From NCBI GenBank assembly GCA_002441245.1, contig DJVP01000011.1, forward strand, positions 53,295 through 117,294: a stretch of 64,000 nucleotides of DNA, read 5' to 3'. Source of the DNA: Candidatus Omnitrophica bacterium UBA6253. Its GTDB lineage: Bacteria; Omnitrophota; Gorgyraeia; Gygaellales; Profunditerraquicolaceae. Position 1 is the stretch's first letter. Every line of letters starts with the position of its first letter. Below the pieces are notes generated by a model that was not told where the DNA came from, did no database searches, and worked only from the letters and a program-made list of their open reading frames with translations. Made by a program: the position numbers and the translations under genes. This document shows, one piece after another, positions 3,687-25,033 of the stretch.

Positions 3687-3689
3687 AAA

Positions 3690-4133: not shown

Positions 4134-4152
4134 AAAGGAAGCAGGTGGATTA

Positions 4153-4554: not shown

Positions 4555-4581
4555 AAAAATAGAAACACCCTCCTTTTTATA

Positions 4582-6549: not shown

Positions 6550-6631
6550 AAAGTATTGCTAAATAATATCTTTGTGTTAAAATCAAGAGTATAACTTTTA
6601 TCAATATCTTCATTCTTTTAATAATTTAAAT

Positions 6632-7045
6632 ATGCCCAACAACAAGGCCCGAAGTTTTGTTATGATCATGATCGCCGTAGGATTGAGCGCATTATTGCTG
6701 CGCACAATGATCCAGAGGTTTATTGTTTATAATGTTGAGCGTAATCAATCATTGGCGCTTGTCAATCTTAAGCTTTTTTATACAGCTTTAGAAAATTACG
6801 CCAAAGATAATAAAGGCGTGTATCCTGATAATATAAACCAGCTTACCAAAGGAAACCCGGTTTACCTGGAAAAAGATTATCTGGCTGTATCATCCGTGAG
6901 GGGTTATGAGTATGATTGCCAGCGGCTTGACTCAAGCGGCTATAACTGCTCGGCAGCTCCGGTAAACTGTAACCTTACCGGAAATAAAGTTTATACTATG
7001 TCTACCGGCGGCTTGATTATCGCCGAGGGTTGCGATAAGAAATAA
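6632..7045 (+). CDS. Hypothetical exported protein, Cys-rich C-terminus (possible pilin-like or pilus-associated)
   Basis: 137 aa. The N-terminus is hydrophobic (ARSFVMIMIAVGLSALLL) but lacks the Glu5 prepilin motif. The C-terminus has 5 Cys. It lies between the TPR protein and the secretin. Confidence 0.3.
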   Translation: MPNNKARSFVMIMIAVGLSALLLRTMIQRFIVYNVERNQSLALVNLKLFYTALENYAKDNKGVYPDNINQLTKGNPVYLEKDYLAVSSVRGYEYDCQRLDSSGYNCSAAPVNCNLTGNKVYTMSTGGLIIAEGCDKK

Positions 7046-8734
7046 ATGGTAAAAAGAGTGAAAAATATATTCTTAATTTGTGCTTTATTTTTCTGCTTGT
7101 TTGTTTGCGCCTTGGCCCAGCAGGATAATTTAGATGTTCCGGCTGAGCAAGGGAATGTTACTTTGGATTTCAAAGAGGCAGACATCTCTAATGTGCTTAA
7201 GATTATCTCCTATAAGTCAGGGGTCAATATAGTGACCACGCCTGATGTGGCGGGAAGTGTTTCAGTGCGCTTAAGTGATGTACCGTGGGAGATAGCCCTG
7301 GATGTTATCTTAAAGACTTACGGTTTTGGATACCAGAGGCAGGGCAATGTTATACTGGTTACCAGGGTAGATAATGTGGCTAAGATTGCCGCCGAGGAGC
7401 CTTTGCAGACGGAGATTATTACTTTGAAATTTCTGGACGCGCAGGACGCGCAGAAGATTATTATCCCTCTGCTTTCTCCGCGGGGAAAGATATCTGTTTT
7501 ATATACCCGCGGCCAGAAAGGCTGGCAGTTTGGAACTTTTAAGATTGGCAGGGATTCTGCCGGTTCCAGCGCAGCTTCTGTAAAAGATGGAGCTAATTCT
7601 ACCAGGTCGGAGACGGTTTCTTATGAGAAGGATGATAAAGGGCAGACAGTAATGAAGAAGGCAGAGTTTGACCCGTCAGTGAAATCCAAGATGCTGGTAA
7701 TTACCGATACCCCCAGCTCGCTTGATAAAATACGCAATATAATATTGCCCAAAATTGATATTAAACCCAAGCAGGTGCTTATTGAAACAAGGATTATAGA
7801 AGTCAATCGCAATAAACTAAGAGACCTGGGCATTGATTGGGGGCTAGGCGGGGCTGGTTCGGCAACAGATACCGCGATACAGATGCAGGGGTCCGGCACT
7901 GCTATAGGAGGACATTCCGGTACGATTAAGACTGCTGCTACAGCTACAAGCGCAGCTAAAACCGTAACTCCGTCTATTTTTAATCCGGCAACAACCGGGA
8001 TCTCAGGATATGAGCCATATAATGCCGGAGGTGAATTTGTATTCCAGAAGTTAACCGGAACTAAGTTTGAAGCGGTTATCCATGCCCTGGAGGATGATGC
8101 TAATACCAATACGTTGTCTGCGCCGAGCATCCTTACTCTTGACAACCAGGAGGCATCTATGTTAGTGGGGTATCATACCCCCATACTTCAATCTACAGTT
8201 ACCGCCGGCGATAACAGCGGCACCGGCACCGGAGCAACTATTACCCAGACACTGGATTATTACCAGGAGATAGGTATTCGTTTAAATGTTGTCCCGCAGA
8301 TAAGCGAAGAAGGCTACATAAATATGATTATCCATCCTAGCGTCACGTCTTCTAATTCCAGCGTTACGGCCACTTCTACTGCCAGCGGGGAGACAACAGA
8401 GACAGAGTATCCGATTATCGATGTGCGCGAAGCCCAGACCCAGGTCTTGCTTAAAGACCAGGAGACTATTGTAATCGGCGGCCTGCTTAAAGATGTTAAG
8501 GCCAAAGAATTTATAGGTATACCTTTCTTGAAAGACCTGCCCTGGATAGGAAAGTTTTTTGGCCGTGAAACAACAAGCACGCAGAAAATTGATCTTTTAA
8601 TATTTATAAAGGCCAGGATAATCAGGGAGGGGGAGTATACTCCTGAAGAGCTGACTAAACTGGAGACAAGATTAGAGCGTGGGCCGGTGATTATCAAGGG
8701 AAAAGAATTAGATAAGAAAGGCAGGAATAAATAG
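7046..8734 (+). CDS. pilQ: Type IV pilus secretin PilQ (GspD/PilQ family)
   Basis: 562 aa with a signal peptide (MVKRVKNIFLICALFFCLFVCALA). The C-terminal secretin motif is VIGGLLKDVKAKEFIGIPFLKDLPWIGKFFG. It also has a G/S/T-rich insert. Confidence 0.75.
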   Translation: MVKRVKNIFLICALFFCLFVCALAQQDNLDVPAEQGNVTLDFKEADISNVLKIISYKSGVNIVTTPDVAGSVSVRLSDVPWEIALDVILKTYGFGYQRQGNVILVTRVDNVAKIAAEEPLQTEIITLKFLDAQDAQKIIIPLLSPRGKISVLYTRGQKGWQFGTFKIGRDSAGSSAASVKDGANSTRSETVSYEKDDKGQTVMKKAEFDPSVKSKMLVITDTPSSLDKIRNIILPKIDIKPKQVLIETRIIEVNRNKLRDLGIDWGLGGAGSATDTAIQMQGSGTAIGGHSGTIKTAATATSAAKTVTPSIFNPATTGISGYEPYNAGGEFVFQKLTGTKFEAVIHALEDDANTNTLSAPSILTLDNQEASMLVGYHTPILQSTVTAGDNSGTGTGATITQTLDYYQEIGIRLNVVPQISEEGYINMIIHPSVTSSNSSVTATSTASGETTETEYPIIDVREAQTQVLLKDQETIVIGGLLKDVKAKEFIGIPFLKDLPWIGKFFGRETTSTQKIDLLIFIKARIIREGEYTPEELTKLETRLERGPVIIKGKELDKKGRNK

Positions 8735-8738
8735 GGGT

Positions 8739-9044
8739 ATGTATAAGGTCAATTTTATTTTTTCTAAAAAAGGACTGATGCGGTATATTTCGCATTTAGA
8801 CCTGATGCGCCTATTCATGCGCGCTATGCGCCGGGCAGAGCTGCCTTTGAAAATGACAGAAGGTTTCAGTCCGCATCCTAAGTTAAGTTTAAGAAGGGCA
8901 TTAAAGCTAGGATTGGAAAGCGAGCATGAGGAAGCTTCCATAGTTTTAAAATTCCCGGTTGAGCCGGAAGATTTTAAAAATAGGCTGCAAAAACAATTGC
9001 CAGAAGGGATACAAGTAAAAGATGTCCAAGGAAATTTTAATTAA
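8739..9044 (+). CDS. DUF2344-like 'radical SAM-linked protein' family member, short (possibly truncated)
   Basis: The YISHLDLMRLFMRAMRRAELPL...GFSPHPKLS motif resembles TIGR03936/DUF2344. It is only 101 aa and overlaps the RNase G start by 23 nt. Confidence 0.4.
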   Translation: MYKVNFIFSKKGLMRYISHLDLMRLFMRAMRRAELPLKMTEGFSPHPKLSLRRALKLGLESEHEEASIVLKFPVEPEDFKNRLQKQLPEGIQVKDVQGNFN

Positions 9045-10464
9045 TGCTGAAGCCCAGGAAAAGCGGGTTGCAATAGTCCAGGATGGGCAGCTCCTTGAGT
9101 TTCATATCGAGCGGCCTCAGGACCGCACAATAGTAGGCAATATTTACAAAGGCAGGATCGAGGCGGTGATGCCTTCAATAGGCGCTGCCTTTGTTGATAT
9201 TGGATTGGTCAAGAATGGGTTTTTGTATTTATCGGAGATTGAATCCGCCTATGAATCTGTGGAAAGCCCGCAACAGACCCCGATTAAAGAAGTAAAAAAA
9301 GGCCAGGAGATCCTGGTCCAGGTGGTTAAAGAATCATTCGGCACTAAGGGGCCGCGTCTTTCTACGCAGATTGGCCTAGCCGGCAGGTACTTAGTAATTA
9401 TGCCGATGGATAAACAGGGAGGTATCTCTCGGCGCATCGAAGATGAAGCTGAGAGAAGGCGCCTGCGCGATATTTTCAGAGGGCTTAAATTTCCTACTCC
9501 GGTAGGTTTTATTGTGCGTACCGCTGCCAGCGGCCGTTCCGCACAGGAGTTGACCCGCGACGCGCAGTTCCTTTATAAATTATGGCAAAGGCTGGAGAAG
9601 GGTGCCCAGGGCAAAAAGGCCCCGGCCCTGGTTTACGAGGAATATGATTTAGCCCTGCGGGCAATCCGCGATTCTTTTACGGAAGATGTTACAAAGCTGA
9701 TTGTTGATTCCAAACCTGAATTTTACCGCATTCAGCATTTTATGCGTACTTTCTTAAGTTATTTATGCAAAAGGGTTGAGCTCCACAGGGGGGATGACCT
9801 TTTTGGCGCAAAAGACGTAGAAAAGCAGATCAACCGTATTTTTGAAAGCCATGTTTATATGAAATCCAAGGCCTACCTGATTATTGAGCCGACTGAAGGC
9901 TTGGTGGTAATTGATGTAAACAGCGGCGGTTTTAAGAAAAAGGTAAATCAGGAGGATATGGCTTTCAAGGTTAATGCGGAAGCCGCGCTTGAGATTGCCC
10001 GCCAACTGGTGTTGCGCGATTTAGGCGGGATAATCGTTATTGATTTTATTGATATGGAGCGTGAAGGCCACCGCAGGGAGTTGTTAAATATTCTGAAAAA
10101 AGCCTTGTCGAGCGACCGGGCAAAATATGATATAGAGGGAATTTCCAAATTCGGGATAGTGGAGATGACCCGCGAACGGATCCACAAAACCGTGCAGATG
10201 CTTTCTTTCCATCCCTGCCCTTATTGCAAGGGCAAAGGCAAGCTGCGTTCACCGCAAACCCTGGGAATTTTTGCTTTAAAAGAGCTTAAGCGTTATCTCA
10301 AGGGCAAAACCTTAAAACAGGCATCAGTTACCCTGGCACCGCCTGTAATTGATGAAATCTTAAAAGATAAGGAGGCCCTGGCTGCGATTGAGCGAAAATA
10401 CAGGATCAAAGTAAATTTGATCTCAAACCCAACTGCGCACCTGGAAGATATCAAGATATCCTAA
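9022..10464 (+). CDS. rng: Ribonuclease G/E family endoribonuclease
   Basis: 480 aa with an S1 domain near the N-terminus and an RNase E/G catalytic core (VIDVNSGGF, IVIDFIDME). There is no long C-terminal scaffold. Confidence 0.8.
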   Translation: MSKEILINAEAQEKRVAIVQDGQLLEFHIERPQDRTIVGNIYKGRIEAVMPSIGAAFVDIGLVKNGFLYLSEIESAYESVESPQQTPIKEVKKGQEILVQVVKESFGTKGPRLSTQIGLAGRYLVIMPMDKQGGISRRIEDEAERRRLRDIFRGLKFPTPVGFIVRTAASGRSAQELTRDAQFLYKLWQRLEKGAQGKKAPALVYEEYDLALRAIRDSFTEDVTKLIVDSKPEFYRIQHFMRTFLSYLCKRVELHRGDDLFGAKDVEKQINRIFESHVYMKSKAYLIIEPTEGLVVIDVNSGGFKKKVNQEDMAFKVNAEAALEIARQLVLRDLGGIIVIDFIDMEREGHRRELLNILKKALSSDRAKYDIEGISKFGIVEMTRERIHKTVQMLSFHPCPYCKGKGKLRSPQTLGIFALKELKRYLKGKTLKQASVTLAPPVIDEILKDKEALAAIERKYRIKVNLISNPTAHLEDIKIS

Positions 10465-10484
10465 GTTATAAGAGAAAATCGGAC

Positions 10485-10513
10485 TTGACCCTTAAATCCA
10501 TCGGATATATAAT
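10485..10513 (+). promoter_or_regulatory. Sigma70-like promoter for rplU: TTGACC-N17-TATAAT
   Basis: TTGACC lies at 10485-10490 and TATAAT at 10508-10513 with 17 bp spacing. An AAGGAGG RBS lies at ~10547 and the ATG at 10562. Confidence 0.45.
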
Positions 10514-10561
10514 ATATAATTCAAAATTAGCTGTATTTAGTTACCTTAAGGAGGATAACAA

Positions 10562-10879
10562 ATGTATGCGATAATTGAAGTTGGAGCAAAACAGTACAAT
10601 GTGAAAAAAGATGATATTATTGAAGTAAACAAGCAGGTATTTGAAAAAGGCAAGAATATTATCCTGGATAAAGTTTTGTTGGTTGGCAGTAGTAAAGCCG
10701 TAGAGATTGGACAGCCTTATGTTAAAGGCGCTAAGGTTGAAGCAGTGGTTCTTGGCCAGACTAAAGGCGAAAAGACTACAGCTTATAAATACCGCCGCAG
10801 AAAGAATTGGCATTGGGAGAAAGGACACCGTGCCCAGCTTACTGAGCTTAAAATAAAATCTATTGATTTAGGCCTGTAA
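10562..10879 (+). CDS. rplU: 50S ribosomal protein L21
   Basis: 105 aa. MYAIIEVGAKQYNV...KYRRRKNWHWEKGHRAQLTELKI is the bL21 signature. Confidence 0.9.
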   Translation: MYAIIEVGAKQYNVKKDDIIEVNKQVFEKGKNIILDKVLLVGSSKAVEIGQPYVKGAKVEAVVLGQTKGEKTTAYKYRRRKNWHWEKGHRAQLTELKIKSIDLGL

Positions 10880-11832
10880 TGTTCATTGACAGCTCTAAAA
10901 TAAACGTCCGGGCTGGCAGTGGGGGTAAAGGGTGCAAAAGTATCTACCGCGACAAGTATCAACGTCAAGGAAAAGCTGATGGCGGAGACGGGGGCAAAGG
11001 CGCTGATATTATCTTTCGCGCAGACCACAATCTGCTTACGCTTTTGGATTTTCAATATCATCGGCATTTTTTTGGCGCACACGGAGGCCACGGCAGCAGT
11101 AATCATAAAAAAGGCAGGGCCGCAGAGGATGTAATCGTACGCGTCCCGCTGGGGACAGTGATAAGAGATGCCACAACAGGTTCTCTTCTGCGTGATTTAA
11201 ATGAAGATGGGCAGGAAGTAATTGTTGCCAAGGGCGGAAAGGGCGGGATAGGCAATTGGCATCGTAAAGAAGCGACTCCCGGAGAGTCAGGCGAAGAAAG
11301 GGAAGTTATTTTAGATTTAAAACTCCTGGCTGATGTGGGGGTAGTGGGATTTCCTAATGCGGGAAAATCCACATTGATAACGGCAATATCAAATGCCCGG
11401 CCGAAAATTGCAGCTTACCCGTTTACGACTATGGGGCCGGTTTTAGGAATTGTAAATTCTGGGCATAAAAAATTTGTTATTGCGGATCTGCCTGGTTTGA
11501 TTGAGGGGGCTTCAGAAGGGCGCGGGCTGGGAGATAAATTCCTAAAGCATGTTGAACGTACCAAGGTCTTGATTCACATGGTGGATATTGCTGGTTTTGA
11601 GGGCAGGGACCCGGTAGATGATTATAAAAAGATTAACCTGGAATTAAAGAATTACAACAAAGTTGTTTATAAAAAACCGCAGGTTATTTGTGCCAACAAA
11701 ATGGATATTGAAGGCGCAGAGAAAAATTTAAAAAGGTTCAAGAAGTTAATTAAAAATCCTGTTTATGCGGTTTCGGCATTAGAGAAGACAAATTTAGGGG
11801 AGTTAATTGATGCGGTCGCAAAGAAATTATAA
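10879..11832 (+). CDS. obg: GTPase Obg/CgtA
   Basis: Obg N-terminal glycine-rich fold (GGDGGKGADIIF) followed by a G domain with GFPNAGKST and DLPG motifs. The start codon overlaps the rplU stop (TAATG). Confidence 0.9.
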   Translation: MFIDSSKINVRAGSGGKGCKSIYRDKYQRQGKADGGDGGKGADIIFRADHNLLTLLDFQYHRHFFGAHGGHGSSNHKKGRAAEDVIVRVPLGTVIRDATTGSLLRDLNEDGQEVIVAKGGKGGIGNWHRKEATPGESGEEREVILDLKLLADVGVVGFPNAGKSTLITAISNARPKIAAYPFTTMGPVLGIVNSGHKKFVIADLPGLIEGASEGRGLGDKFLKHVERTKVLIHMVDIAGFEGRDPVDDYKKINLELKNYNKVVYKKPQVICANKMDIEGAEKNLKRFKKLIKNPVYAVSALEKTNLGELIDAVAKKL

Positions 11833-12577
11833 AAGAATTGTAATCAAGATCGGCTCAAGCCTGTTTTCCAGCCAGAAGTCAAAGCTGGATATGGGGCTGG
11901 TTAAAAACATTGCCGGACAGATCTCTGATTTGATAAGGCAGGGCAAAGAGGTGGTGGTTGTTTCTTCGGGAGCTATTGCTTTGGGTATGTCAATTTTAAA
12001 GCTTACAAAACGGCCCAAAGAGCTGCAATACCTTCAGGCTGCCGCGGCCATTGGCCAGCATGAGTTAATGCACGTCTATAAGCTTGCGCTTAATAAATAT
12101 AAATTAAATTGCGCCCAGTTGCTACTTACCTGGGATGATTTCCTTGGAGTGCGTTATGCAAATGCAAAACATACACTGAATACATTGCTAAAATTAAAAT
12201 GTGTACCGATCATAAATGAGAACGACACAGTTGCAACTGAAGAGATCAAGTTTGGAGACAATGACCGTTTATCTGCCTTAGTCTCCATATTGGTAGGCTC
12301 AGACCTTTTAATTATTCTTTCTGATGTGGAAGGTTTATTGGATAAGAATAAAAAAGTTATACGCAGGGTGGATAAAATTACGGGTGAAATAAAATCTTTG
12401 GCTTGTCCGATCAATAAGAGGACCTGTGTTGGAGGGATGACGACCAAAATAGAGGCAGCGCGCATCGCCGTTGAAGGGGGAGTCCCTTGTGTAATTACTA
12501 ATGGGCGAAAGAGCAGAATTGTCAGCCAGTTGGCAAATAACCCTTTTTGCCAAGGTACTATATTTTTACCTAAATGA
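11807..12577 (+). CDS. proB: Glutamate 5-kinase (no PUA domain)
   Basis: IVIKIGSSLF...VVVVSSGAIALG...ENDTVATEEIKFGDNDRLSA matches the amino-acid kinase family of ProB. Confidence 0.85.
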   Translation: MMRSQRNYKRIVIKIGSSLFSSQKSKLDMGLVKNIAGQISDLIRQGKEVVVVSSGAIALGMSILKLTKRPKELQYLQAAAAIGQHELMHVYKLALNKYKLNCAQLLLTWDDFLGVRYANAKHTLNTLLKLKCVPIINENDTVATEEIKFGDNDRLSALVSILVGSDLLIILSDVEGLLDKNKKVIRRVDKITGEIKSLACPINKRTCVGGMTTKIEAARIAVEGGVPCVITNGRKSRIVSQLANNPFCQGTIFLPK

Positions 12578-13830
12578 AGAAAAACCTTAAAAAAGAAATA
12601 GAGGGTATCGCAAAAATGGCTTTAGCAGCTTCCCGCCTGCTGGCTAATTTAACTTCTGATGCCAAAAACGCGGTGCTTAAAGACATGGCTGCCGCTTTGT
12701 TGAGCAATAAGCAGGATATTTTGAAAGCAAACAGGAAGGATATCAGCTCCTCCCGCAGCAAGGGCAAGGCCTTTATCGACCGGCTTACCTTGGATGAGGC
12801 AAGGATCAGGCAGATGGCAGGCGCCTTGCTCGATGTTACCAGGCTTAAGGATCCGGTGGGCGAGCTTATGCGCGGCTGGAATACTGATAGCGGCTTGCGT
12901 ATCCAGAAGGTGCGTTCGCCTATCGGAGTTATCGCTATAATTTATGAATCCCGGCCTAATGTTACCGCGGATTGTGTCGGGCTTTGCCTTAAGTCAGGCA
13001 ACAGCGTAATTTTACGCGGCGGAAGCGAATCTTTGAATTCCAATCTTGCCATTTACAATGCGCTTAATTCGGCGATACAAAAACACGGTTTACCTTGCGG
13101 ATCAATCAGCCTGATTAAGACACCTGACCGCAAGGCAGTAGATATATTGTTAAAGTTAAATAATTATATTGATGTAGTTATCCCCCGCGGCGGAGAGGAG
13201 CTGATTAAGAAGGTAGTTAGTTCTTCGCGCATTCCTGTGATCAAGCATTATAAGGGGATTTGCCATGTTTATGTGGATGCCTGGGCGGATTTGAATATGG
13301 CGGAAAAGATTTGCTTTAACGCCAAGGTGCAGCGGCCGGGAGTTTGTAATGCAATGGAAAGCATGCTGGTGCATCGCGATGTAGCTATAAGATTTCTGCC
13401 GGGGATGCTTAAAAAGTTTAAAGAGGCTGGGGTTCAAATCCGCGGGTGCGCCTTTACCCGGAAGATCGCTAAGTGGGTGCAGCGCGCCACCGAAAAAGAC
13501 TACCGCACTGAATACCTGGATTTGATTCTTTCGGTCAAGGTAGTTGAGGATTTAGATGAGGCAATCGCCCATATAAATAATTATGGTTCGCACCATTCGG
13601 ATAGTATTGTTACGGATGATTATGACGAGGCCTTGAAATTTTTAAGGCAGGTGGATTCAGCCTGTGTTTACCTGAATGCCTCAACCCGTTTTACAGACGG
13701 AAATCAGTTTGGCATGGGCGCCGAGATCGGTATCTCAACAGATAAATTGCATGCCCGAGGGCCTATGGCACTAGAAGAGTTGACTACCTATAAATATATG
13801 GTTTTCGGCTCTGGCCAGGTGAGGCAATGA
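12574..13830 (+). CDS. proA: Gamma-glutamyl phosphate reductase
   Basis: 418 aa in the aldehyde dehydrogenase superfamily. It contains IYESRPNVT and CNAMESMLVH and follows proB with a 4-nt overlap. Confidence 0.9.
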   Translation: MKKNLKKEIEGIAKMALAASRLLANLTSDAKNAVLKDMAAALLSNKQDILKANRKDISSSRSKGKAFIDRLTLDEARIRQMAGALLDVTRLKDPVGELMRGWNTDSGLRIQKVRSPIGVIAIIYESRPNVTADCVGLCLKSGNSVILRGGSESLNSNLAIYNALNSAIQKHGLPCGSISLIKTPDRKAVDILLKLNNYIDVVIPRGGEELIKKVVSSSRIPVIKHYKGICHVYVDAWADLNMAEKICFNAKVQRPGVCNAMESMLVHRDVAIRFLPGMLKKFKEAGVQIRGCAFTRKIAKWVQRATEKDYRTEYLDLILSVKVVEDLDEAIAHINNYGSHHSDSIVTDDYDEALKFLRQVDSACVYLNASTRFTDGNQFGMGAEIGISTDKLHARGPMALEELTTYKYMVFGSGQVRQ

Positions 13831-14393
13831 AGATTGGCATCTTAGGCGGAACTTTTAATCCGGTGCACATCGGCCATTTGATTCTGGCAGAGGAGGCAAG
13901 AGAGAAATTAGGGCTGGATAAGATTATCTTTATTCCTACAGCCTTGCCGCCGCACAAGGATAATTTAAATATTGCTCCGGCGGATAAAAGGCTAAAAATG
14001 TTAAAGTTGGCCATAAGGGGCAACCGGCACTTTGCAGTTTCGGATATTGAAGTTAAACGCATGGGCCGTTCTTATACGATTGATACATTGAAAGAATTGA
14101 AGTGCAGATACAGCCGTGATGAGCTTTATTTTATTATTGGTTCTGACCTGCTTAAATATTTAAATGAGTGGAAGGATTTAAGCGAAATAACCAAGATGGT
14201 AAAATTTGTAGTTGCAACGCGGCCGGGTTACCCTCTTGAGCAGATACCGCATTACATGCAGACTTTAGCTATCCGAGCAGTAGATGTTTCAGGTTTTGAA
14301 GTGCGGCAGGCAGTGGCGAAGAATAAGTCATTCGGTTACCTGGTGACAGATAAGGTTTTTGACTATATCAAGAAAAGCAAGCTCTATAAGTAG
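13827..14393 (+). CDS. nadD: Nicotinate-nucleotide adenylyltransferase
   Basis: MKIGILGGTFNPVHIGHL carries the (H/T)xGH nucleotidyltransferase motif. The TAG stop at 14391-14393 lies inside the first repeat module. Confidence 0.85.
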   Translation: MKIGILGGTFNPVHIGHLILAEEAREKLGLDKIIFIPTALPPHKDNLNIAPADKRLKMLKLAIRGNRHFAVSDIEVKRMGRSYTIDTLKELKCRYSRDELYFIIGSDLLKYLNEWKDLSEITKMVKFVVATRPGYPLEQIPHYMQTLAIRAVDVSGFEVRQAVAKNKSFGYLVTDKVFDYIKKSKLYK

Positions 14394-14548
14394 ACAGTCT
14401 ATATAATTATTTGATAATAGATGAGTTATGAAACAAATACATGTAAGAGAGAGGAACATAATAAAATAAGAAGTTGTTTTAGTTATTTTGAATCAAAATA
14501 TTTGTTTTATAAATAATTGGTTTGCAAGATGTTACATACACTGTCTAC
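14390..14548. repeat. REPIN-like inverted doublet of the GTAGAC-W-GTCTAC module; it fills the whole nadD-rpe intergenic region.
   Basis: The left arm at 14390-14402 is GTAGACAGTCTAT. The right arm at 14537-14548 is TACACTGTCTAC. Both arms align over ~50 nt with the other module copies (AATATTTGTTTTRTAAC ... TTACGTAGACTGTCTAC). Confidence 0.6.
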
Positions 14549-14549
14549 T

Positions 14550-15197
14550 ATGATAAAGATAGCGCCATCAATATTATCGGCTGATTTTAGTAATCTTGCG
14601 CTTGAGCTTAAAAAGATTGAACGTGCGGGAGCGGATTTAGTCCATGTTGATATAATGGACGGGCATTTCGTGCCGAATATTACAATCGGTCCGGTAGTCG
14701 TAAAATATATACGCAGTTCGACCAGGCTTCCTCTGGATGTGCATTTGATGATTGAAAATCCTGCTAAATATATAGGCGCCTTTATCAACGCCGGAAGCGA
14801 TATGATTACTGTGCATATTGAGGTTGTAGCCTTAAAAGAATTGGCAGCTATTGCCAGGGTGTTAAAGAAAAACGGGATAAAACTGGGGATTTCGTTAAAT
14901 CCGGCAACCCCTTTATCCAGGATTAAGAAAGCCTTGCCGCTGGTCGATTTTGTTTTGGTGATGTCGGTTAACCCCGGATTCGGCGGACAGGCCTTTATTC
15001 CGTCAGCGTTAAATAAAATACGCCAGCTTCGCGCAATCTTTAAAAAAGATATCGCCGTAGACGGAGGGATTAATAATGTTACCGGCAAGCAGGTAAGGCA
15101 GGCAGGGGCAAATATCCTTGCCGCAGGTTCGTATATTTTTGGGGCAAAGAATACAAAAAAAGCAATTAACAGTTTAAGAAAGGACGAGACTCGATGA
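14550..15197 (+). CDS. rpe: Ribulose-phosphate 3-epimerase
   Basis: MIKIAPSILSADFSNL...VHVDIMDGHFVPN...GG. The likely true start ATG at 14550 sits 2 nt after the repeat. The track ORF starts at 14517, inside the repeat. Confidence 0.85.
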   Translation: MIKIAPSILSADFSNLALELKKIERAGADLVHVDIMDGHFVPNITIGPVVVKYIRSSTRLPLDVHLMIENPAKYIGAFINAGSDMITVHIEVVALKELAAIARVLKKNGIKLGISLNPATPLSRIKKALPLVDFVLVMSVNPGFGGQAFIPSALNKIRQLRAIFKKDIAVDGGINNVTGKQVRQAGANILAAGSYIFGAKNTKKAINSLRKDETR

Positions 15198-16585
15198 GCA
15201 ATGCAGTTTCACAAATCAAATTCGGCACCGACGGTTGGAGGGCGATTATCGCAGATACTTATACTTTGGAAAACGTAAGGATTTTGAGCCAGGCAGTGGC
15301 GGATTACCTGGGCAGCGGCAAGAAAGTTGGGATTGGATATGATACGCGTTTCATGTCCGCTAAATTTGCCGAGGCAGCTGCAATAGTATTAAAGAATAAC
15401 GGTATGGAGGTTGTCCTTTCTGACAGGCCCACGCCTACGCCGGCATTAAGTTTTGTTGTAAAGTCGCGTAAGCTGGACTTAGGGATTATGATTACCGCTT
15501 CGCATAACCCGGCAGAGTACAATGGTTTTAAAATTAAGAATTCCGCTGGCGGCGGAGCTAGCCAGGAGTTAACGCGGGAGGTTGAAGGTTTACTTGGCAA
15601 GAGCCCGGTAAAAGATGCAACTTTGCTTGAGCCGATTAAGGCCGTGGATATCACTAAGGATTATATAAAGTTTATCCGCAATTATGTTGATTTAAAGAAG
15701 ATCAAAAATAAAAAGTTTAAAGTCTTGGTTGATTCTATGTATGGCTCCGGAGACAGCTTCATTGCTCAGGTACTTAAGGGTACAAGCATAAAACTGGAGT
15801 TTATGCGCAATACGATCAATCCTTCTTTTGGCGGAGGCAGGCCTGAGCCGGTGGAAGAAAACCTGAAAGAATTAAAGGAACGAGTAAAAAAGGAGAAGTT
15901 TGATTTAGGTATTGCTTTAGACGGCGATGCCGACAGGATAGCCGCGGTTGCACCCGGTGGAGTATTTATCCACCCACAGAAGATATTAGGGTTGTTGGCT
16001 TTGCATCTAAACCAGGACAGGCATTGGAGCGGCGGCTTGGTCAAGACAATTTGCGGTACGACGATGATGGATAATATCGCAAAATTCCTGGGGATTAAAC
16101 TTTATGAAACTCCCGTAGGCTTCAAATACATCTCAAATCTCATGGAGACTGAAGATATCGTTGCCGGAGGAGAAGAAGCTGGCGGTATGGGTGTAAAGGG
16201 CTATATCCCTGAACGCGATGGGACTATGGCAGGGCTTTTGCTGATTGAAATGATGGTTTATCGCAACAAGAATATGCTGAAGATTTTAAACGAGGCTGAA
16301 AAATCGTTTGGTAAATATTATTATGTGCGTCAGGATTTGCATTTAACTAAACGTGTTGAGCCAAGAAAAGAAAGTTTGCCATCTGAATTATTAGGCAAAA
16401 AGGTTGTGGATGTCAAAGATTACGATGGCATAAAACTTATCTGTGAAGACCAGAGCTGGCTGATGTTCCGCAGCTCGGGGACTGAGCCGATTATGCGCAC
16501 CTACGCTGAGGCAAAGAGCCTCCTGCGGGCAAATAAGCTGCTTGCGTTGGGAAAGGAAATAATTTTGAAAGATGTACAGATTTAG
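15194..16585 (+). CDS. Phosphomannomutase/phosphoglucomutase (alpha-D-phosphohexomutase)
   Basis: The active-site loop ITASHNPAEYNGFK (phospho-Ser) and the GDGDADR metal-binding loop are both present. Confidence 0.85.
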   Translation: MSNAVSQIKFGTDGWRAIIADTYTLENVRILSQAVADYLGSGKKVGIGYDTRFMSAKFAEAAAIVLKNNGMEVVLSDRPTPTPALSFVVKSRKLDLGIMITASHNPAEYNGFKIKNSAGGGASQELTREVEGLLGKSPVKDATLLEPIKAVDITKDYIKFIRNYVDLKKIKNKKFKVLVDSMYGSGDSFIAQVLKGTSIKLEFMRNTINPSFGGGRPEPVEENLKELKERVKKEKFDLGIALDGDADRIAAVAPGGVFIHPQKILGLLALHLNQDRHWSGGLVKTICGTTMMDNIAKFLGIKLYETPVGFKYISNLMETEDIVAGGEEAGGMGVKGYIPERDGTMAGLLLIEMMVYRNKNMLKILNEAEKSFGKYYYVRQDLHLTKRVEPRKESLPSELLGKKVVDVKDYDGIKLICEDQSWLMFRSSGTEPIMRTYAEAKSLLRANKLLALGKEIILKDVQI

Positions 16586-17159
16586 CCGGTTTGTATTGCT
16601 GATAATTTTGAAATTATTTTTCCTTTTTGAAGTTAAGGGCAGGGAAAATATTCCTAAGGAAGGCGGATTTATCTTGGCGGCTAACCACGTCAGCTACCTT
16701 GACCCTATAGCCGTAGGCGCAGCCTGCCCGAGGACAGTGCATTTTATGGCCCGGGATAATTTATTCTTTAAGCCGTTTCTTAAATCATGGCTTAAGGCAG
16801 TTGGTGTTATCCCGCTTAAAAGAAACGCCGCGGATTTATCGGCGATTAAGACAGGATTAAGGATTGTGCATAAGGCAGGGGCATTAGCGTTATTCCCTGA
16901 AGGCACGCGAAGGACAAAAGAAAATATGTATTTAAACCCTGAGCCGGGAGTAGGGTTTTTGGCGGCAAAGGGAGGTGTGCCGGTGATTCCAGCTTTTGTT
17001 TCCGGCACATATAAAGCAATGCCGAGGCAGGCGCGGTCACTGCATTTAACAAAAATATCCGTGTACTTCGGAGAAGAAATTCATATAGAAAGGGGGAGGT
17101 CTTATCAGGAAATTTCGCATCTGATAATGGCTAATATCAAGCAATTATCACTTAATTAG
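16572..17159 (+). CDS. plsC: 1-acyl-sn-glycerol-3-phosphate acyltransferase
   Basis: HX4D motif AANHVSYLDP and FPEGTRR motif. Confidence 0.75.
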   Translation: MYRFSRFVLLIILKLFFLFEVKGRENIPKEGGFILAANHVSYLDPIAVGAACPRTVHFMARDNLFFKPFLKSWLKAVGVIPLKRNAADLSAIKTGLRIVHKAGALALFPEGTRRTKENMYLNPEPGVGFLAAKGGVPVIPAFVSGTYKAMPRQARSLHLTKISVYFGEEIHIERGRSYQEISHLIMANIKQLSLN

Positions 17160-17210
17160 TTATTTAAAACTAAAAAATCAAAATCTAATAAAGAAAGGAA
17201 GTAATTTAAA

Positions 17211-18755
17211 ATGTCAAGCATGACAAGAGAAGAATTAGAGCAGATGTATAATCAAAGCATTAAAGTTTTAAAAGAAGGCCAGGTAGTTACCGGAAAAATT
17301 GTGGGGATTAAGAGCAAGGAAGTTTTAGTGGATGTGGGTTTTAAATCCGAAGGGATTGTTCCGATTACGGAATTCAGCTCCGGAGATTTAGAGACTGGCA
17401 AGGAGATGGAGTTTTTGCTTGAGACTATGGAAAATGACGCCGGGGTAATGACCTTGTCACGCGAAAAGGCCATGCGTATGCAGGGTTGGGATAAGATTGT
17501 CAAGTTGTCTAATGAAGGCACTTTAGTTGAAGGTAAGCCGGTAAAGAAGGTTAAAGGCGGATTCCTGGTTGATATTATGGGAATCGAAGGGTTCTTGCCC
17601 AGTTCGCTTTCCTCCTTTCGTAATATTCCGGACAAGGATATATTGTATAAGATGTTTAAGTTTAAGATTGTTAAGGTGAATAATCTTCGCCGTAGTATTA
17701 TTGTCAGCCGCCGCGAAGCAGTGCAGGCAGACAGGGATGTGGCCAAGGGCAAGATTTGGGGAGAATTAAAGATCGGCAATATCTATCCTGGGTTAGTTAA
17801 AGCGATTACCGATTTCGGCGCTTTTATTGATCTAGGCGGGGTAGACGGCCTGTTGCATATTACGGATATGTCCTGGTCAAAGATCAGCCATCCGAGCGAG
17901 ATTGTGGCTATCGGGGATAAGATTGAGATCATGGTTTTAAATATGGATCAGGCATCAGGCAAGGTTTCTTTGGGCCTCAAACAGAGGCTTGCTGACCCAT
18001 GGCAGGATATCGGCGAGAAATTCAGTGTTGGAGCAAAGGTAAAAGGTAAGGTAGTTAACATACTGCCTTACGGAGTTTTTGTGGAGTTGGAAAAAGGGAT
18101 TGAAGGCTTAATCCATGTTTCCGAGATCTCCTGGACTAAACGCGTGAATAATCCGGGCGAGATGTTTGCCGTCGGAGATATACTGGAAACTCAGATTCTA
18201 AGCGTGGAAAAAGAATCCCGAAGGATATCCTTGAGTTTAAAACAGTTGGAGCAGAACCCTTGGACTGAAGCCGAAGCTAAATATCCGGTAGGCGCAAAGG
18301 TATCCGGTAAAGTCCGCGGCTTCACTGATTACGGTGCATTTGTCGAGTTGGATTCTAACCTTGAGGGGATGATCCATGTGTCTGACCTTTCCTGGACCAA
18401 GAGGATAGGTCATCCGCAGGATGTATTAAAGAAAGGGCAGAAGATTGATGTCACTGTACTTTCTGTTGATGCTACCAACCGCAGGATTGCTTTAGGATTA
18501 AAGCAGTTGCAGGATAACCCCTGGTCAAAGATAGCTGAGAAGTATCCTCTGGATACTGTATTGGAAGCTGAGGTGTCCAGCCTGACGGAGTTTGGCGTGT
18601 TTGCTAAGTTAGATGATGAACTGGAAGGCTTGATTTACTCTAGTGAAATCGAGAAAGAAACAGTTGCCAATTTGAAACCCGGAGATAAAATAAAGGTAAA
18701 GGTAATCAAGGTGGATGTGGAGCAGGCTAAGATCGGCCTGACTGCCCGTTTATAA
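17211..18755 (+). CDS. rpsA: 30S ribosomal protein S1 (multiple S1 domains)
   Basis: 514 aa with repeated S1 motifs (G.V..I.DFGAFVDL, GL.HISE). Confidence 0.9.
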
Positions 18756-19921
18756 TGGATATAAGTAAACAAATAGAGACAATTAAAAGGGGCGCTGCGG
18801 AGATAATCTCTGAGGGGGAGTTGTATAAGAAACTCGACCAGAGTATTAAAACCAAGCGCCCCTTAAAAATCAAGGCCGGTTTTGACCCTACTGCCCCGGA
18901 TCTGCATTTAGGTCATACCGTGCTTTTGAGGAAGCTGCGCCAGTTCCAGGATTTAGGGCATGAGGTTTATTTTCTGATCGGCGATTTTACCGGCCAAATC
19001 GGCGATCCCAGCGGTAGATCGGAAATCCGCAAGCAGCTTTCAAAATCAGAGGTTGTTAAGAACGCCCAGACCTATAAAAAGCAAGTGGCCAAGATCCTTG
19101 ATACCTCAAAACTAAGAATAGTTTTTAATAGTAAGTGGTTTGAAAAAATGTCGGTTGTAGAAATGCTAAAACTTACTACTTATTCTACGGTTTCCCAAAT
19201 GCTTGCCCGCGACGATTTTAAAAAGCGTTATGCAAAAGGAGAGAATATCTCTATCCTGGAATTTATTTATCCTTTGATGCAGGGGTATGATTCAGTTGTG
19301 CTTGAGGCTGATGTGGAACTTGGGGGGACTGACCAAATCTTTAATCTGCTGGTTGGCCGCGAATTACAAAAAGATTTTAACCAGGCTCAGCAGGTTGTGC
19401 TCACCATGCCGTTATTGGAAGGAACTGACGGCGTGCAGAAGATGAGTAAAACTTACGGCAACTATGTTGGCATCAATGAGCCGGCAAGCGATATATTCGG
19501 CAAGATTATGTCAATCTCCGACGAGTTGATGTTTAAATATTATGAGCTGCTTACTGATGAAGATTTAAATTCAGTTAGAAGAATGCATCCTAAAGAGGCC
19601 AAAGTAAATTTAGCCAAGATTATCATTACCCAGTATCACTCTGCAGAAGCGGCGGAAAAAGAAGCGCAGGAGTTTGCCCGAGTATTTTCCCAAAAAGAGA
19701 CGCCTGCGGATATGCCGGTTTTTAAAACTGACGGCGAGAAAACAATCCTGGTTATTCTTGCTGAAAGTAAACTGGTTGCCAGCGGCAATGAGGCGCGCAG
19801 GCTGATTAAACAGGGGGCAGTCAGTTTTAATAATCTAAAAATAGAAAAAGATGATTTTGTTCCGAATGAACCCGGCATCTTGAAAGCCGGCTCCCGCAGA
19901 TTCCTGAAGCTTATTTTGTAG
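18755..19921 (+). CDS. tyrS: Tyrosine--tRNA ligase
   Basis: Class I HIGH motif (PDLHLGH), KMSKT motif and a C-terminal S4-like domain. The TAG stop at 19919-19921 lies inside the GTAGAC of the repeat. Confidence 0.9.
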
Positions 19922-20764
19922 ACAGTCTACGTAACTATATATTCCCCAGCCATATCTGTAAGAAATATTTCTATTTTTAAAATAAACTTCGTTAGATTTA
20001 CCCATCTCCTACGTCAATTATGATAGAAGGAGGGGAAAATTATGCCATCGTATGCGCGCAAGCATCAGCTTCAACAGTCATTAGCGTATCATGCGTTTAA
20101 CCGAAGTAATGGACGAAAGGTAATTTTTCAAGAACCGGGGGATTTTGATCGTTTTAAGACTTTACTTTACGAGTATGGTTTTAAGTTTGATGCAAAAATA
20201 TACCATTGGGTGATTATGCCGAATCATTACCATCTTGTGGTCGAATTTAATTTACCTGAGTTAATTTCGAAATTTATGGCAGGATTGCATCGGGCATATA
20301 GCCATTATTATCATAATCAATATAACTCGGTAGGTTTTTTATGGCAAGGCAGGTTTAAATTACAGCCGATACAAAAAGATTTATACTTGAAAAATTGCGG
20401 CAGGTATGTGGAGAGGAATCCGGTGCGCGCGGGAATGGTCAAAGAGGCCTGTGAATATGCGCATAGTAGCGCGCGGTTTTATTGTTTAGGGCAGGAAGAT
20501 GGTGTAACGCAAGTCAGTTGCGATTTTGAAAATTTTGGAAAAGAAGCAACTGGGCGCAGGGCAGTTTATAAAGAATTCCTGAGGGCTTTTGATAGCGAGG
20601 AAGAGGCGTACTTCTCAAACATAGAAATTCCTTGTGGTGACCAAGATTTCCTGCGTAGGCTGGTAAAAGCGAAGGGGCATTATTACCCGAGAAGGCAAGG
20701 TAGGAAGGCTGCAATATTTGTTTTGTAAACGCATATATTTGATATGATTGCATAGACTGTCTAC
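19918..20764. mobile_element. REP-associated tyrosine transposase (RAYT) unit flanked by inverted copies of the GTAGAC-W-GTCTAC module
   Basis: The left end at 19918-19934 is GTAGACAGTCTACGTAA, an inverted module. The right end at 20752-20764 is ATAGACTGTCTAC, a direct module. Between them lies the IS200-like Y1 transposase gene. Confidence 0.7.
20042..20728 (+). CDS. IS200/IS605-like Y1 (HuH) transposase of the REP-associated (RAYT) type
   Basis: HuH motif MPNHYHLVVEF. C-terminal motif YVERNPVRAGMV with the catalytic-Tyr context typical of PF01797 and RAYTs. 228 aa. Confidence 0.8.
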   Translation: MPSYARKHQLQQSLAYHAFNRSNGRKVIFQEPGDFDRFKTLLYEYGFKFDAKIYHWVIMPNHYHLVVEFNLPELISKFMAGLHRAYSHYYHNQYNSVGFLWQGRFKLQPIQKDLYLKNCGRYVERNPVRAGMVKEACEYAHSSARFYCLGQEDGVTQVSCDFENFGKEATGRRAVYKEFLRAFDSEEEAYFSNIEIPCGDQDFLRRLVKAKGHYYPRRQGRKAAIFVL

Positions 20765-20771
20765 AGATTTG

Positions 20772-20780
20772 TGGTATAAT
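20772..20780 (+). promoter_or_regulatory. Extended -10 (TGGTATAAT) just downstream of the right REP end, 8 nt before the SemiSWEET ATG
   Basis: TGnTATAAT pattern. There is no obvious -35 and it is very close to the ATG, so the transcript may be leaderless. Confidence 0.3.
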
Positions 20781-20788
20781 TATTAATT

Positions 20789-21064
20789 ATGCTTTGGCAT
20801 TTGATTGGCGCGATGGCCGCCACCTTAACCATGTTTTCTTTTATTCCGCAGATAGCCAGGTCTTTAAGGACTAAATCTGTAAAAGACGTCAGCCCGATTA
20901 CCTTATTCCAGCTTTCTGCCGGTGTTTTACTCTGGATGATCTATGGTATCGCGCGCAAGGATGTGATAATTATCGGCGCGAATCTGATAACTTTTATAAG
21001 CCTGGCAGTGCTTATTTTCTTGTATTTTAAATATAAAAAGGTGGATGTTTCTTTTAAGAAATAA
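20789..21064 (+). CDS. SemiSWEET (PQ-loop/MtN3 family) sugar transporter
   Basis: 91 aa with 3 TM helices and the PQ motif (FSFIPQIARSLRTKSVKDVS). It is close in sequence to characterised bacterial SemiSWEETs. Confidence 0.75.
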   Translation: MLWHLIGAMAATLTMFSFIPQIARSLRTKSVKDVSPITLFQLSAGVLLWMIYGIARKDVIIIGANLITFISLAVLIFLYFKYKKVDVSFKK

Positions 21065-21065
21065 C

Positions 21066-21114
21066 ATTTCTTTTATAAGTATCTATTGCATAACGAATTA
21101 CGTAGACTGTCTAC
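21066..21114 (+). repeat. Single direct-orientation repeat module ending in TTACGTAGACTGTCTAC at 21098-21114
   Basis: Aligns with the modules at 23811, 24970 and 28283 (..CATTTCTTTTATAAG..TAACGAATTACGTAGACTGTCTAC). It sits 27 nt upstream of the rmlA ATG. Confidence 0.6.
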
Positions 21115-21140
21115 AAGAGCTACAAGAGCAGGGGGGGTGA

Positions 21141-22007
21141 ATGAAAGGCATAATTCTGGCTGGTGGCAAGGCAACGCGTCTTTATCCTATAACTAAAGGT
21201 GTCTGTAAGCAGATGCTGCCGATTTATGATAAGCCGATGATCTATTATCCTTTATCAGTATTAATGCTGGCAGGTATACGGGAAATTCTGGTTATCTCTA
21301 CTCCCAAAGATACACCAAGATTTAAAGATTTATTGGGGGATGGCTCCAGCTTAGGGATTAAATTATCTTACTCTGTCCAACTTGAACCGAAAGGAATTGC
21401 CCAGAGTTTTGTGATTGCTGAAGATTTTATCGGCCGCGATAACGCCTGTCTTATCCTGGGAGATAATATTTTTTACGGTTATAATTTAAGCGAGCTCTTG
21501 CAGCAATCAGCCAGGATTAAGGATGGGGCGGTGATCTTTGGTTATTATGTCAAGGACCCTGAGCGTTATGGCGTGCTTGAGTTTAATAAGAAATGCAAGG
21601 TTACCTCGATTAAAGAAAAACCTATAAAGCCCAAATCTAACTGGGCGGTGGCGGGTTTGTATTTTTATGATAATAATGTGGTAAAGATTGCCAAGAATAT
21701 CAAGCCCTCTGCAAGGGGGGAGCTGGAGATCACTTCGGTAAATAACGAATACATCAAAAGAGGCAAACTCAGGGCGGAATTTCTCGGCCGTGGGCATGCC
21801 TGGCTTGATACCGGTACCTATGAATCGCTTATTGACGCATCGGTTTTTATTAAAACGATAGAAGACAGGCAGGGGCTTAAGATCGGCTGTATTGAAGAGG
21901 TGGCCTACCGTATGGGTTATATTAATAAAACACAATTGCTAAAGCTTGCCGGCCAGATACCGACCAGCTACGGCGAATACTTGAAGGATTTACTTAAAAA
22001 TGGATAA
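21141..22007 (+). CDS. rmlA: Glucose-1-phosphate thymidylyltransferase
   Basis: [18 protein letters not shown]...[11 protein letters not shown] is the RmlA signature. A G7 tract lies at 21131-21137 in the RBS region. Confidence 0.9.
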
Positions 22008-22821
22008 AAACATTTTAATTTTGGGAAAAGGGTTTATCGGCGAAAGGCTGCAAAAAGAGTTTGATTGCCCAATTGACGGCTCAATGATAAATTGTTTTAG
22101 CGACGCCGAGAAACTGGCCAAGAAATATGCCCCTAAAATAATCATAAATTGTATCGGCATTACCGGCAGGCACAATGTCGATGACTGTGAATTAGAGAAG
22201 GATGCGACTCTATTGGCAAACAGTTTTATCCCGGTAATTCTGGCTGAAGTTTGCCTGCGCAATAACATTAAGCTTGTGCATATAAGCAGCGGGTGTATTT
22301 TTAATTACGACTATAAGAAAAATGTATCGATAAAAGAAAATAGCCAGGATTATTTCTTCGGGTTGTTCTATAGCCGCAGCAAGATCTATTCGGAAAGGGC
22401 GCTTGATACGCTTAGCCGGGATTATAATATACTTATTGCCAGGATCCGCATACCCCTGCTTAATGCCAGGCATCCTAAGAACGTGTTAGATAAGCTTATA
22501 AAATACAAGAAAATAATCGATATTGCTAATTCCATAACTTATATACCTGATTTTATCCGGGCAATTAAACATTTGATAAAGATTGACGCCCGGGGGGTGT
22601 ATAATGTAGTAAATAAGGGCGGCTTGCGTTATCCGAGGCTTATGCGGGTTTATCAAAAATACGCCCCGGATTTTAAATTCAAAGTGATTGCCTTAAAGAA
22701 ATTAGGCCTGGCCAGGACTAACCTTATTTTGTCCACAAGCAAGCTTGAGAAAACAGGTTTTAAGGTCAGGAATATCAACTCAATCCTAGAAGAATGCGTA
22801 AAAGAATACCTAAAATCTTAG
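22000..22821 (+). CDS. NAD(P)-dependent sugar-nucleotide reductase, RmlD-like (dTDP-4-dehydro-6-deoxyhexose reductase candidate)
   Basis: 273 aa. N-terminal [13 protein letters not shown] Rossmann motif and a short-chain SDR YxxxK-like catalytic region. It sits between rmlA and rmlB. No rmlC was seen. Confidence 0.45.
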
Positions 22822-23786: not shown

Positions 23787-23807
23787 AACCCCCTTTTAAT
23801 TTTAAAA

Positions 23808-23864: not shown

Positions 23865-23867
23865 TAT

Positions 23868-25026: not shown

Positions 25027-25033
25027 AAATCAA

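Follow-up and report, generated by a model that had tools for sequence, protein, structure and literature searches.

An inverted-repeat doublet of a RAYT-associated family at the nadD-rpe junction in Omnitrophota

Introduction

How did a 156-bp spacer, made up largely of inverted repeats, come to lie between the housekeeping genes nadD and rpe, which in seven related Omnitrophota genomes are not separated by any spacer? The question is raised by positions 14390-14548 of a 64,000-nucleotide stretch of the Candidatus Omnitrophica bacterium UBA6253 genome (GenBank assembly GCA_002441245.1, contig DJVP01000011.1, positions 53,295 to 117,294 of the forward strand), which is referred to as a whole as the window. 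An earlier note, made from the letters of the window, had read the spacer as an old insertion of a REPIN, i.e. a doublet of repetitive extragenic palindromic (REP) sequences, without its REP-associated tyrosine transposase (RAYT). Our analysis leads us to regard 14390-14548 as very probably a non-autonomous inverted-repeat element, belonging to the family of repeats that flank a RAYT-type gene in the same locus, which was inserted at the nadD/rpe junction and then retained under purifying selection.

In the REPIN-RAYT systems, for which Pseudomonas fluorescens and Escherichia coli served as references, the transposase genes are single-copy and vertically inherited, and the repeats flanking them have spread as inverted doublets that persist for long times (Bertels and Rainey, 2011, PMC3116915; Bertels et al., 2017, PMC5581495). 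RAYT-linked repeats belong to the small set of mobile elements believed to persist through vertical inheritance, and their role for the host is still debated. REPs tagged with GTAG, together with variants of the terminal inverted repeat (TIR) type, are known from Proteobacteria, Cyanobacteria, Chloroflexi and the PVC group; members of the GTAG-tagged superfamily carry an unpaired GTAG at one end, beside a stem of 5-13 bp (Di Nocera et al., 2013, PMC3733652). In a full-text literature search, no report connecting repeats of this kind with Omnitrophota came up.

Results

The segment 14390-14548 consists of two inverted 52-nt modules, the GTAGACAGT ends of which point outward, with a 55-nt AT-rich centre between them; it thus has the arrangement of a REPIN, two inverted copies of a repeat separated by a short spacer. 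The motif GTAGACAGTCTAT occupies 14390-14402, and its near-complement ATACACTGTCTAC occupies 14536-14548. The left module (14390-14441, plus strand, GTAGACAGTCTAT...GAAACAAATAC) is matched by a 52-nt profile of the family with an nhmmer E value of 1.7e-9 and 34.3 bits, the lowest score of 11 copies, and the right module (14497-14548, minus strand) with 2.9e-11 and 40.0 bits; the profile alignments span 14390-14440 and 14548-14497, respectively. According to a repeat finder, the two arms pair over 51 nt with 73% complementarity. The spacer had been described as consisting entirely of two module copies facing each other, of which the inverted arrangement and the length of 156 bp hold, but the centre (14442-14496) is not module sequence, and modules account for 104 of the 159 bp of the doublet. 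This centre is about 39 nt longer than that of the orthologous doublet in the relative L014 and than that of the canonical doublets of 118-120 bp.

Both flanking genes lie on the plus strand. The upstream gene nadD (13827-14393), coding for nicotinate-nucleotide adenylyltransferase (Pfam CTP_transf_like, E = 1.1e-29), ends with a TAG that forms bases 2-4 of the left module motif, i.e. the element supplies the stop codon. The downstream gene rpe (14550-15197), coding for ribulose-phosphate 3-epimerase, is matched by Pfam Ribul_P_3_epim from residue 3 onward (E = 4.7e-73), and the ATG that agrees with the N-terminus of the homologues is at 14550. The right module ends 1 nt 5' of this ATG, with T14549 as the only base in between, and not 2 nt away as had been stated.

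The doublet belongs to a family of modules found at further sites between 19.9 and 28.3 kb of the window, as the earlier note had proposed. The 13-mer GTAGACAGTCTAC, searched with up to two mismatches, gave 20 strand-matches at 11 sites of the window against 0.40 expected, a number reached in 0 of 100 shuffles. A profile built from these copies over 52 nt found exactly 11 full-length matches in the 64 kb, with E values from 1e-13 to 2e-9. Placed in one orientation, the 11 sites align without gaps and share the layout GTAGACAGTCTAC-GTAAYT, about 18 variable bases, GTTACAAAACAAATATT. The inner part of both arms of the nadD-rpe doublet aligns to the other copies over the full 52 nt, an alignment whose failure would have spoken against the insertion.

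A position-by-position pattern was taken from 98 distinct module copies. Positions 2-9 (TAGACAGT), T11, A12, A16, A17, A43, A46 and A47 are invariant, and G14, T15, T23, T37, T38, A44, A48 and T49 nearly so, while positions 18-36 are free to vary except T23. None of the 98 copies carries an insertion or deletion, and the blocks are kept exactly 19 nt apart. At the end of the module stands a GTAG, of which G1 is present in 85 of the 98 copies and T2, A3 and G4 in all; it forms part of the one candidate stem, GTAGA/TCTAC, and this stem is weak and lacks conservation. Compared with the consensus, C13 is replaced by T in both arms of the nadD-rpe doublet and C10 by G in the right arm. Such point differences had been taken as a sign that this insertion is older than the others. 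The differences are real, but they are weak evidence of age, because position 10 varies throughout the family (C in 55, G in 24, T in 16 and A in 3 copies) and position 13 is C or T.

The candidate for the mobilizing enzyme is encoded 5.5 kb downstream of the doublet, by a single gene for a Y1/HUH tyrosine transposase of the RAYT type (20042-20728, plus strand, 228 aa; Pfam Y1_Tnp, E = 2.8e-15). The term "RAYT-less" is therefore true of the doublet itself, but not of the locus. The only significant match of the protein in the PDB is 4ER8, the TnpArep of E. coli (E = 0.002 with the single sequence, 2.4e-4 with a profile of 20 sequences). In this alignment the HUH motifs coincide, and Y122 is aligned with Y115, the catalytic residue of 4ER8. 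The motifs H62-Y63-H64, W101QGRF105 and Y122xERNP127 are invariant in 20 homologues, down to 54% identity. The gene is present in one copy in the window and always follows tyrS in the 11 genomes that have it, and its identity to homologues (up to 85%) parallels that of NadD (up to 87%); by copy number, synteny and identities it appears to be, like other RAYT genes, a single-copy gene at a conserved position that is inherited vertically.

The repeats that flank this gene are the same as those of the doublet. Inverted modules border the gene in the window and in 10 other genomes, and none of the RAYT-bearing genomes examined departs from this arrangement; the unit of gene and modules measures 842-847 bp, except for 911 bp in L046 alone. 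The left module of the window (19918-19969, plus strand) overlaps the tyrS stop codon, and the right one (20713-20764, minus strand) holds the last 16 nt of the RAYT open reading frame (ORF) including its stop. The last five codons and the stop (AAIFVL*, 20713-20728) are encoded by the conserved inner block of the right module, so that protein end and repeat constrain each other. The left module is followed by a leader of 72 nt (19970-20041) that leads up to the RAYT start; it contains the stretches GTTAGATTT...CGTC(A/T)ATT, conserved in six genomes (the window, L010, L012 and L014-L016), and may be a regulatory region for the transposase gene.

For comparison, the syntenic region of nine further species-level genomes was used, together with two genomes that came from scanning contigs of one genome per species. 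The Omnitrophota assembly GCA_028718365.1 and several metagenomes encode proteins identical to those of the window, on contigs that are 99-100% identical to it, and NadD homologues at 74-87% identity belong to Candidatus Omnitrophota where the source gives a name. The gene order proB-proA-nadD-rpe-pmm...S1-tyrS is conserved, with the exception of L013, where proA and nadD are separated by two additional epimerase genes. In L012, L013, L015, L016 and L056 the end of nadD and the start of rpe share the overlap ATGA, and in L017 and L055 the two genes are one base apart, whereas the window, L010, L014, L018 and L040 carry a doublet at exactly this junction. Homology of the five doublets extends from end to end and takes in the segments in which other family members differ from one another. 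These empty and occupied sites bear out the reading as an insertion, and none of the relatives has a nadD-rpe spacer without the dyads, a finding that would have pointed to convergence. No target-site duplication was found at doublet flanks. Separately, in L017 and L055 the terminal part of nadD was seen to contain a Shine-Dalgarno-like AGGGGA ahead of rpe.

The distribution of the repeats follows that of the RAYT gene in three states. The window, L010, L014, L018 and L040 have the RAYT gene after tyrS, the doublet at nadD-rpe and further modules; in L012, L015 and L016 the RAYT gene is present and modules flank it and a few nearby genes, with none at nadD-rpe; and in L013, L017, L055 and L056 the gene is absent and no module was found in 16-20 kb of syntenic DNA.

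Copies of whole doublets have also arisen at new loci. In the species-representative collection, 37 stretches contain the exact 17-mer GTAGACAGTCTACGTAA, 33 of them in 11 metagenome-assembled genomes (MAGs), 10 labelled Omnitrophota; in one MAG it is found on 13 contigs, and a 922-kb contig has it at 72-88, 192-200 and 584-592 kb. The commonest doublet in the genomes that bear the 17-mer measures 118-120 bp, i.e. 52 + about 15 + 52 nt. L025 and L053, different contigs of one MAG, carry doublets that are 89% identical, with identical centres and unrelated flanks, and a doublet downstream of thiE in L020 is 74% identical to the nadD-rpe doublet in the variable segments. These paralogous doublets imply that the doublet was copied as a whole and indirectly indicate that it is the replicating unit, as in REPINs. 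Matches of the 17-mer in Saccharibacteria, Burkholderiaceae, Paenibacillus and Terriglobales (four) were discarded, as they scored 15-20 bits against the profile and consisted of the 17-mer alone; we estimate the chance background for a 17-mer in 596 Gb at about 70, assuming uniform composition. A phage origin was likewise rejected: nine IMG/VR contigs with the exact 17-mer reached 15-16 bits against the 52-nt profile and had neither a RAYT gene nor the flanking genes. Full modules of up to 46 bits were also seen in L044 and L047 (CAYRUB01), labelled Planctomycetales, where rmlA is 74% identical to that of the window; CAYRUB01 is probably an Omnitrophota relative or a mislabelled bin.

The orthologous doublets are as conserved as the neighbouring coding DNA, or more so. 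Between the window and L010, identity is 89% over the whole doublet and 95% in its variable segments, versus 61% at four-fold degenerate sites of six flanking genes; for L014 the corresponding values are 82.5%, 76% and 40%. Random pairs of modules are 41% identical at the variable positions. Recent recombination was rejected as a cause of the high conservation, as the 60 nt of each gene, nadD and rpe, that adjoin the doublet do not exceed the remainder of the gene in similarity. The identities relative to four-fold sites, together with flanks that lack a tract of raised similarity, imply that the insertion is old and that the doublet is under purifying selection beyond what the family-wide blocks require. 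The earlier note had moreover called this insertion older than the copies in the glycan locus. It is indeed old, with orthologous doublets in five species-level genomes, but not demonstrably older, since L010 and L014 have, at the same positions, the modules that flank the RAYT gene and those that precede rmlA and the next epimerase gene. Contigs of the same species are 98.9-100% identical over 14300-14650, and the most divergent, L002, differs by two single-nucleotide polymorphisms in the doublet, a number too small for within-species variation to be informative.

Several features suggest that the host makes use of the element. In L040 and L018 it supplies five C-terminal codons of NadD (module-encoded CRQST*). 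The right module of the window contains a TTG (14517) and an ATG (14529) in frame with, and upstream of, the canonical rpe start. In all five orthologues, the frame 5' of the rpe ATG is uninterrupted as far back as a stop codon located in the right arm; all five have the in-frame TTG, and three lineages have the in-frame ATG; the distances from repeat to ATG are 1, 4, 10 and 7 nt, which all differ by multiples of 3. Judged from these frames, Rpe may start inside the repeat. Gene callers place the rpe start inside the module in several assemblies, and the lengths that they give for Rpe differ (215, 220-222 or 226 aa). No Shine-Dalgarno sequence precedes any of the three candidate rpe starts. 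A promoter-like TAGACA-16 nt-GATAAT with 10 of 12 matches lies on the gene strand in the left arm (14391-14418), and its -10 element reads GATAAT, GATATT or GATGAT in the orthologues; in the promoter scan, 3 sites compared with 1.7 expected in shuffles, which is not significant. No intrinsic terminator was detected in 14200-14700, and membership in a known RNA family was rejected, as an Rfam scan of 13500-29500 with E values up to 1 returned nothing in any module.

Discussion

The locus has the architecture of a REPIN-RAYT system, with an inverted doublet, a Y1 gene flanked by the same repeats, a single syntenic transposase gene and duplicated entire doublets, and it lacks the REP hairpin. In an ancestor, the doublet very probably inserted into a nadD/rpe junction that overlapped by the four nucleotides ATGA and was translationally coupled. 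By analogy with TnpA-REP of E. coli and with the enzymes of IS200/IS605, the RAYT protein would move the doublet in trans as single-stranded DNA and would recognize the invariant blocks GTAGACAGTnTAYGTAA and TTAYRWAASAAATAYT, spaced exactly 19 nt apart. The insertion abolished the translational coupling of nadD and rpe, and the element was then retained under purifying selection. It was probably retained because the nadD stop and everything upstream of rpe now come from the doublet, possibly along with an N-terminal extension or a promoter.

A number of observations weigh against this explanation. All 11 modules of the window lie within 14390-28333, i.e. in the 14 kb around the RAYT gene, and the other 50 kb are free of them. 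In contrast to Pseudomonas, whose REPIN populations are near-identical, the family has few copies, and these have diverged. REP_Tyr_transpos (NF047646) is the best NCBIfam family for the transposase, but its 60.2 bits are under the curated cut-off of 80. Equally strong conservation would be expected of a regulatory element encoded purely by the host. A single origin of the nadD-rpe doublet had to be rejected, as in a tree of ProA, NadD and Rpe four carriers fall into a clade with 100% bootstrap that includes the repeat-free L017 and L055, whereas L014 is outside, and monophyly of the carriers was recovered in 0 of 200 bootstraps. With carriers that are not monophyletic, at least two gains or a transfer must be assumed. 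The junctions differ as well: L014 has its own TAA stop and a full MKIKIAPS start 10 nt after the repeat, and in the window and L010 the TAG of the element serves as nadD stop and Rpe starts with MIKIAPS. Two gains or one transfer are more likely than a repeated precise restoration of the ATGA overlap.

The folding of the repeat points in the same unfavourable direction as far as REPs are concerned. The 11 modules of the window, taken singly, do not fold better than shuffles (free energies of 0 to -3.9 kcal/mol, z from -1.5 to +1.4), so that the unit does not form a stable stem-loop alone, and no candidate module stem shows covariation in the 98 copies. Pairing of G4 with N10 in the terminal palindrome is not maintained, as position 10 varies and G4 is invariant, and for the same reason the palindrome was rejected as a symmetric operator or hairpin. 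A module hairpin of GTAA (14-17) with TTAC (37-40) was also dismissed: these blocks are invariant and hence uninformative, extended pairing is at or below the expectation from shuffles, and none of the pairs with high mutual information is of the Watson-Crick type. The whole nadD-rpe spacer does fold better than shuffles (as RNA -37.7 kcal/mol, z = -4.2; as DNA -16.4 kcal/mol, z = -2.7); it is the conserved blocks that carry this fold, and a compensatory change is seen in just one of the 36 pairs that make up the consensus fold of the orthologues. The long hairpin of REPIN type that had been considered is thus not clearly borne out: only the conserved blocks pair, and at the variable positions the two arms are no more alike (0.43) than random modules (0.41). 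The unit is not a classical REP hairpin, and by its pattern of conservation the module looks like a bipartite recognition sequence.

With these reservations, the inserted, RAYT-associated element that was then retained has to be compared with other explanations, the closest of which overlaps with it. The doublet might have begun as an insertion and now be mainly a host element, no longer mobile, that acts as an internal promoter, as a structured intercistronic RNA or by coding for the ends of NadD and Rpe. We consider this a serious possibility, although on balance the less probable one. It would account well for copy-specific segments that are 76-95% identical when four-fold sites are at 40-61%, for the TAGACA-16 nt-GATAAT with its -10 element kept in the orthologues, for the spacer fold with z = -4.2, for the module-encoded CRQST* of L040 and L018 and for the open frame upstream of rpe in five orthologues. 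The last argument is, however, weakened by the fact that the distances of 1, 4, 10 and 7 nt represent three indel events, with a chance probability that we estimate at about 0.04; in addition, the promoter scan was not significant, other modules of the family do not have a -10 element at that position, the candidate rpe starts lack a Shine-Dalgarno sequence and compensatory changes are confined to a single pair of the consensus fold. A more specific combination, in which the RAYT protein recognizes the bipartite 52-nt module rather than a hairpin and the doublet has been co-opted by the host as nadD stop, as internal promoter or structured leader and possibly as an N-terminal extension of Rpe, is put forward tentatively and appears rather doubtful as a whole. 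If true, its first part would represent a different recognition mode for a Y1 transposase, and its second would account for the roughly equal conservation seen in the copy-specific segments and in the coding DNA around them.

Two further explanations do without transposition of the repeats. The modules could be binding sites of a regulator, possibly of a domesticated Y1 protein, at gene boundaries of a sugar-nucleotide/glycan regulon, and could have spread by ordinary duplication. The invariant blocks, the fixed 19-nt spacing without an indel in 98 copies, the position of copies at gene starts and ends, the 11 copies in 14 kb around rpe, pmm and rml genes with none in the other 50 kb, and the orthologous copies conserved between species are all consistent with this idea. 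We nevertheless hold it to be improbable, in view of the clean presence or absence at orthologous sites with overlapping genes as the empty state, of copies in both orientations along one coding strand, some of them at 3' ends or within the ends of ORFs, of paralogous whole doublets at unrelated loci (thiE; many contigs of JALOBQ), and of an associated protein that has a transposase fold and is not a known DNA-binding regulator. It is even less probable, indeed scarcely credible, that the modules are recombination sites bounding gene cassettes like the attC sites of integrons and that the nadD-rpe doublet is an empty cassette junction. Genes do occupy the space between consecutive modules, one inverted pair encloses a 54-aa ORF, and the gene content beside the RAYT gene differs among relatives (semiSWEET, BrnT/BrnA, AbiEii). 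However, no integrase of the tyrosine-recombinase type is encoded nearby, the Y1 HUH protein being the only associated enzyme, and the doublet is flanked by housekeeping genes in conserved synteny. The core consensus of attC sites is GTTRRRY/RYYYAAC, whereas the ends of the module read GTAGAC.

Among known systems, the RAYT-associated doublet shares with REPIN-RAYT the inverted doublets of a short repeat accompanied by singlets, the repeats flanking a single-copy Y1 gene of conserved position and vertical inheritance, the apparent duplication of doublets as units and the long persistence of copies at orthologous sites. It differs in that the unit is 52 nt long, AT-rich and bipartite with a 19-nt variable segment, instead of a GC-rich hairpin of 20-40 nt, in that the arms are complementary only in the conserved blocks, in the few, diverged copies without a cloud of near-identical sequences, and in the host phylum. 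TIRtrons with their TIRYT genes (PMC3733652) likewise have a RAYT-like gene set between two long inverted repeats, with the 3' end of the ORF reaching into one of them, and a moderately abundant repeat family occurring as singlets, dimers and clusters; here, the 52-nt inverted repeats bound the 842-847-bp unit, and singlets, doublets and clusters are all seen. In contrast to the TIRs described so far, which are unrelated to GTAG repeats (PMC3733652), the present ones begin with the GTAG tag of the REP superfamily, and they lack the GGGGWSAS motif. The element can be assigned to the RAYT repeats of the TIR type (TIRtron) as readily as to REPINs, with the GTAG tag kept.

With the REPs, or bacterial interspersed mosaic elements (BIMEs), of E. 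coli and their TnpA-REP (4ER8; Messing et al., 2012, PMC3479197) the locus has in common the aligned HUH motif and catalytic tyrosine and the GTAG at the end of the repeat. The similarity of the proteins is weak, the protein of the window has 228 aa instead of 165 aa with a long C-terminal extension, and the GTAG of the module lies within a poorly conserved mini-palindrome of 5 bp and not 5' to a stable hairpin. With IS200/IS605 elements such as IS608 and ISDra2, it shares the Y1 HUH chemistry and flanks without target-site duplication. Assignment to that family is contradicted by a score of 20.5 bits against the NCBIfam IS200 model (cut-off 55), by a gene that is single-copy and syntenic where IS200/IS605 genes are multi-copy, and by long terminal inverted repeats, which IS200/IS605 lack.

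The locus constitutes a compact natural experiment in an uncultivated phylum. Close relatives show three states, namely neither RAYT gene nor repeat, a RAYT gene with its own flanking repeats only, and a RAYT gene with spread copies, and the doublet offers a clean insertion site between two housekeeping genes that once overlapped, while relatives still have the site in its empty form. Moreover, conservation in segments that are free to vary among the other copies points to a constraint beyond the needs of the transposase and makes host co-option testable. The repeats also matter for annotation, as modules supply stop codons and open upstream frames and gene callers disagree on the start of rpe.

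Other features of the locus

Beyond the nadD-rpe doublet and the pair that flanks the RAYT gene, the 52-nt profile identified further modules downstream. Single copies on the minus strand lie between the semiSWEET gene and rmlA (21063-21114) and 3 nt upstream of a 355-aa epimerase gene (23813-23864), and one on the plus strand (26903-26954) overlaps the stop codon of an upstream 122-aa ORF. A second doublet of 127 bp occupies 24900-25026, and the ORF upstream of it takes its last 36 nt from the left module. An inverted pair (28003-28333, with modules at 28003-28054 on the plus and 28282-28333 on the minus strand) encloses a 54-aa ORF (28098-28262), which is preceded by AGGAGG and is possibly a small cargo gene between two modules. 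The module-free parts of the window (1-14389 and 28334-64000) include a low-GC block (29-38%) from about 32 kb onward, and modules are likewise clustered around the RAYT gene in L034 and L040 of JBAZUE. No tRNA or tmRNA genes were found in the window.

Directly after the RAYT unit, a 91-aa semiSWEET/PQ-loop gene (20789-21064) is located between two modules of the same orientation; it is shorter than the 100 aa required for the ORF listing and hence absent from it. The slot between tyrS or the RAYT gene and semiSWEET/rmlA varies among the relatives. It holds a BrnT/BrnA toxin-antitoxin system in L014 (16567-17071) and L016 (10262-10787), and in the RAYT-less L056 it holds AbiEii, HTH and AAA_14 genes (13581-16315); this slot appears to be a hotspot for small accessory genes.

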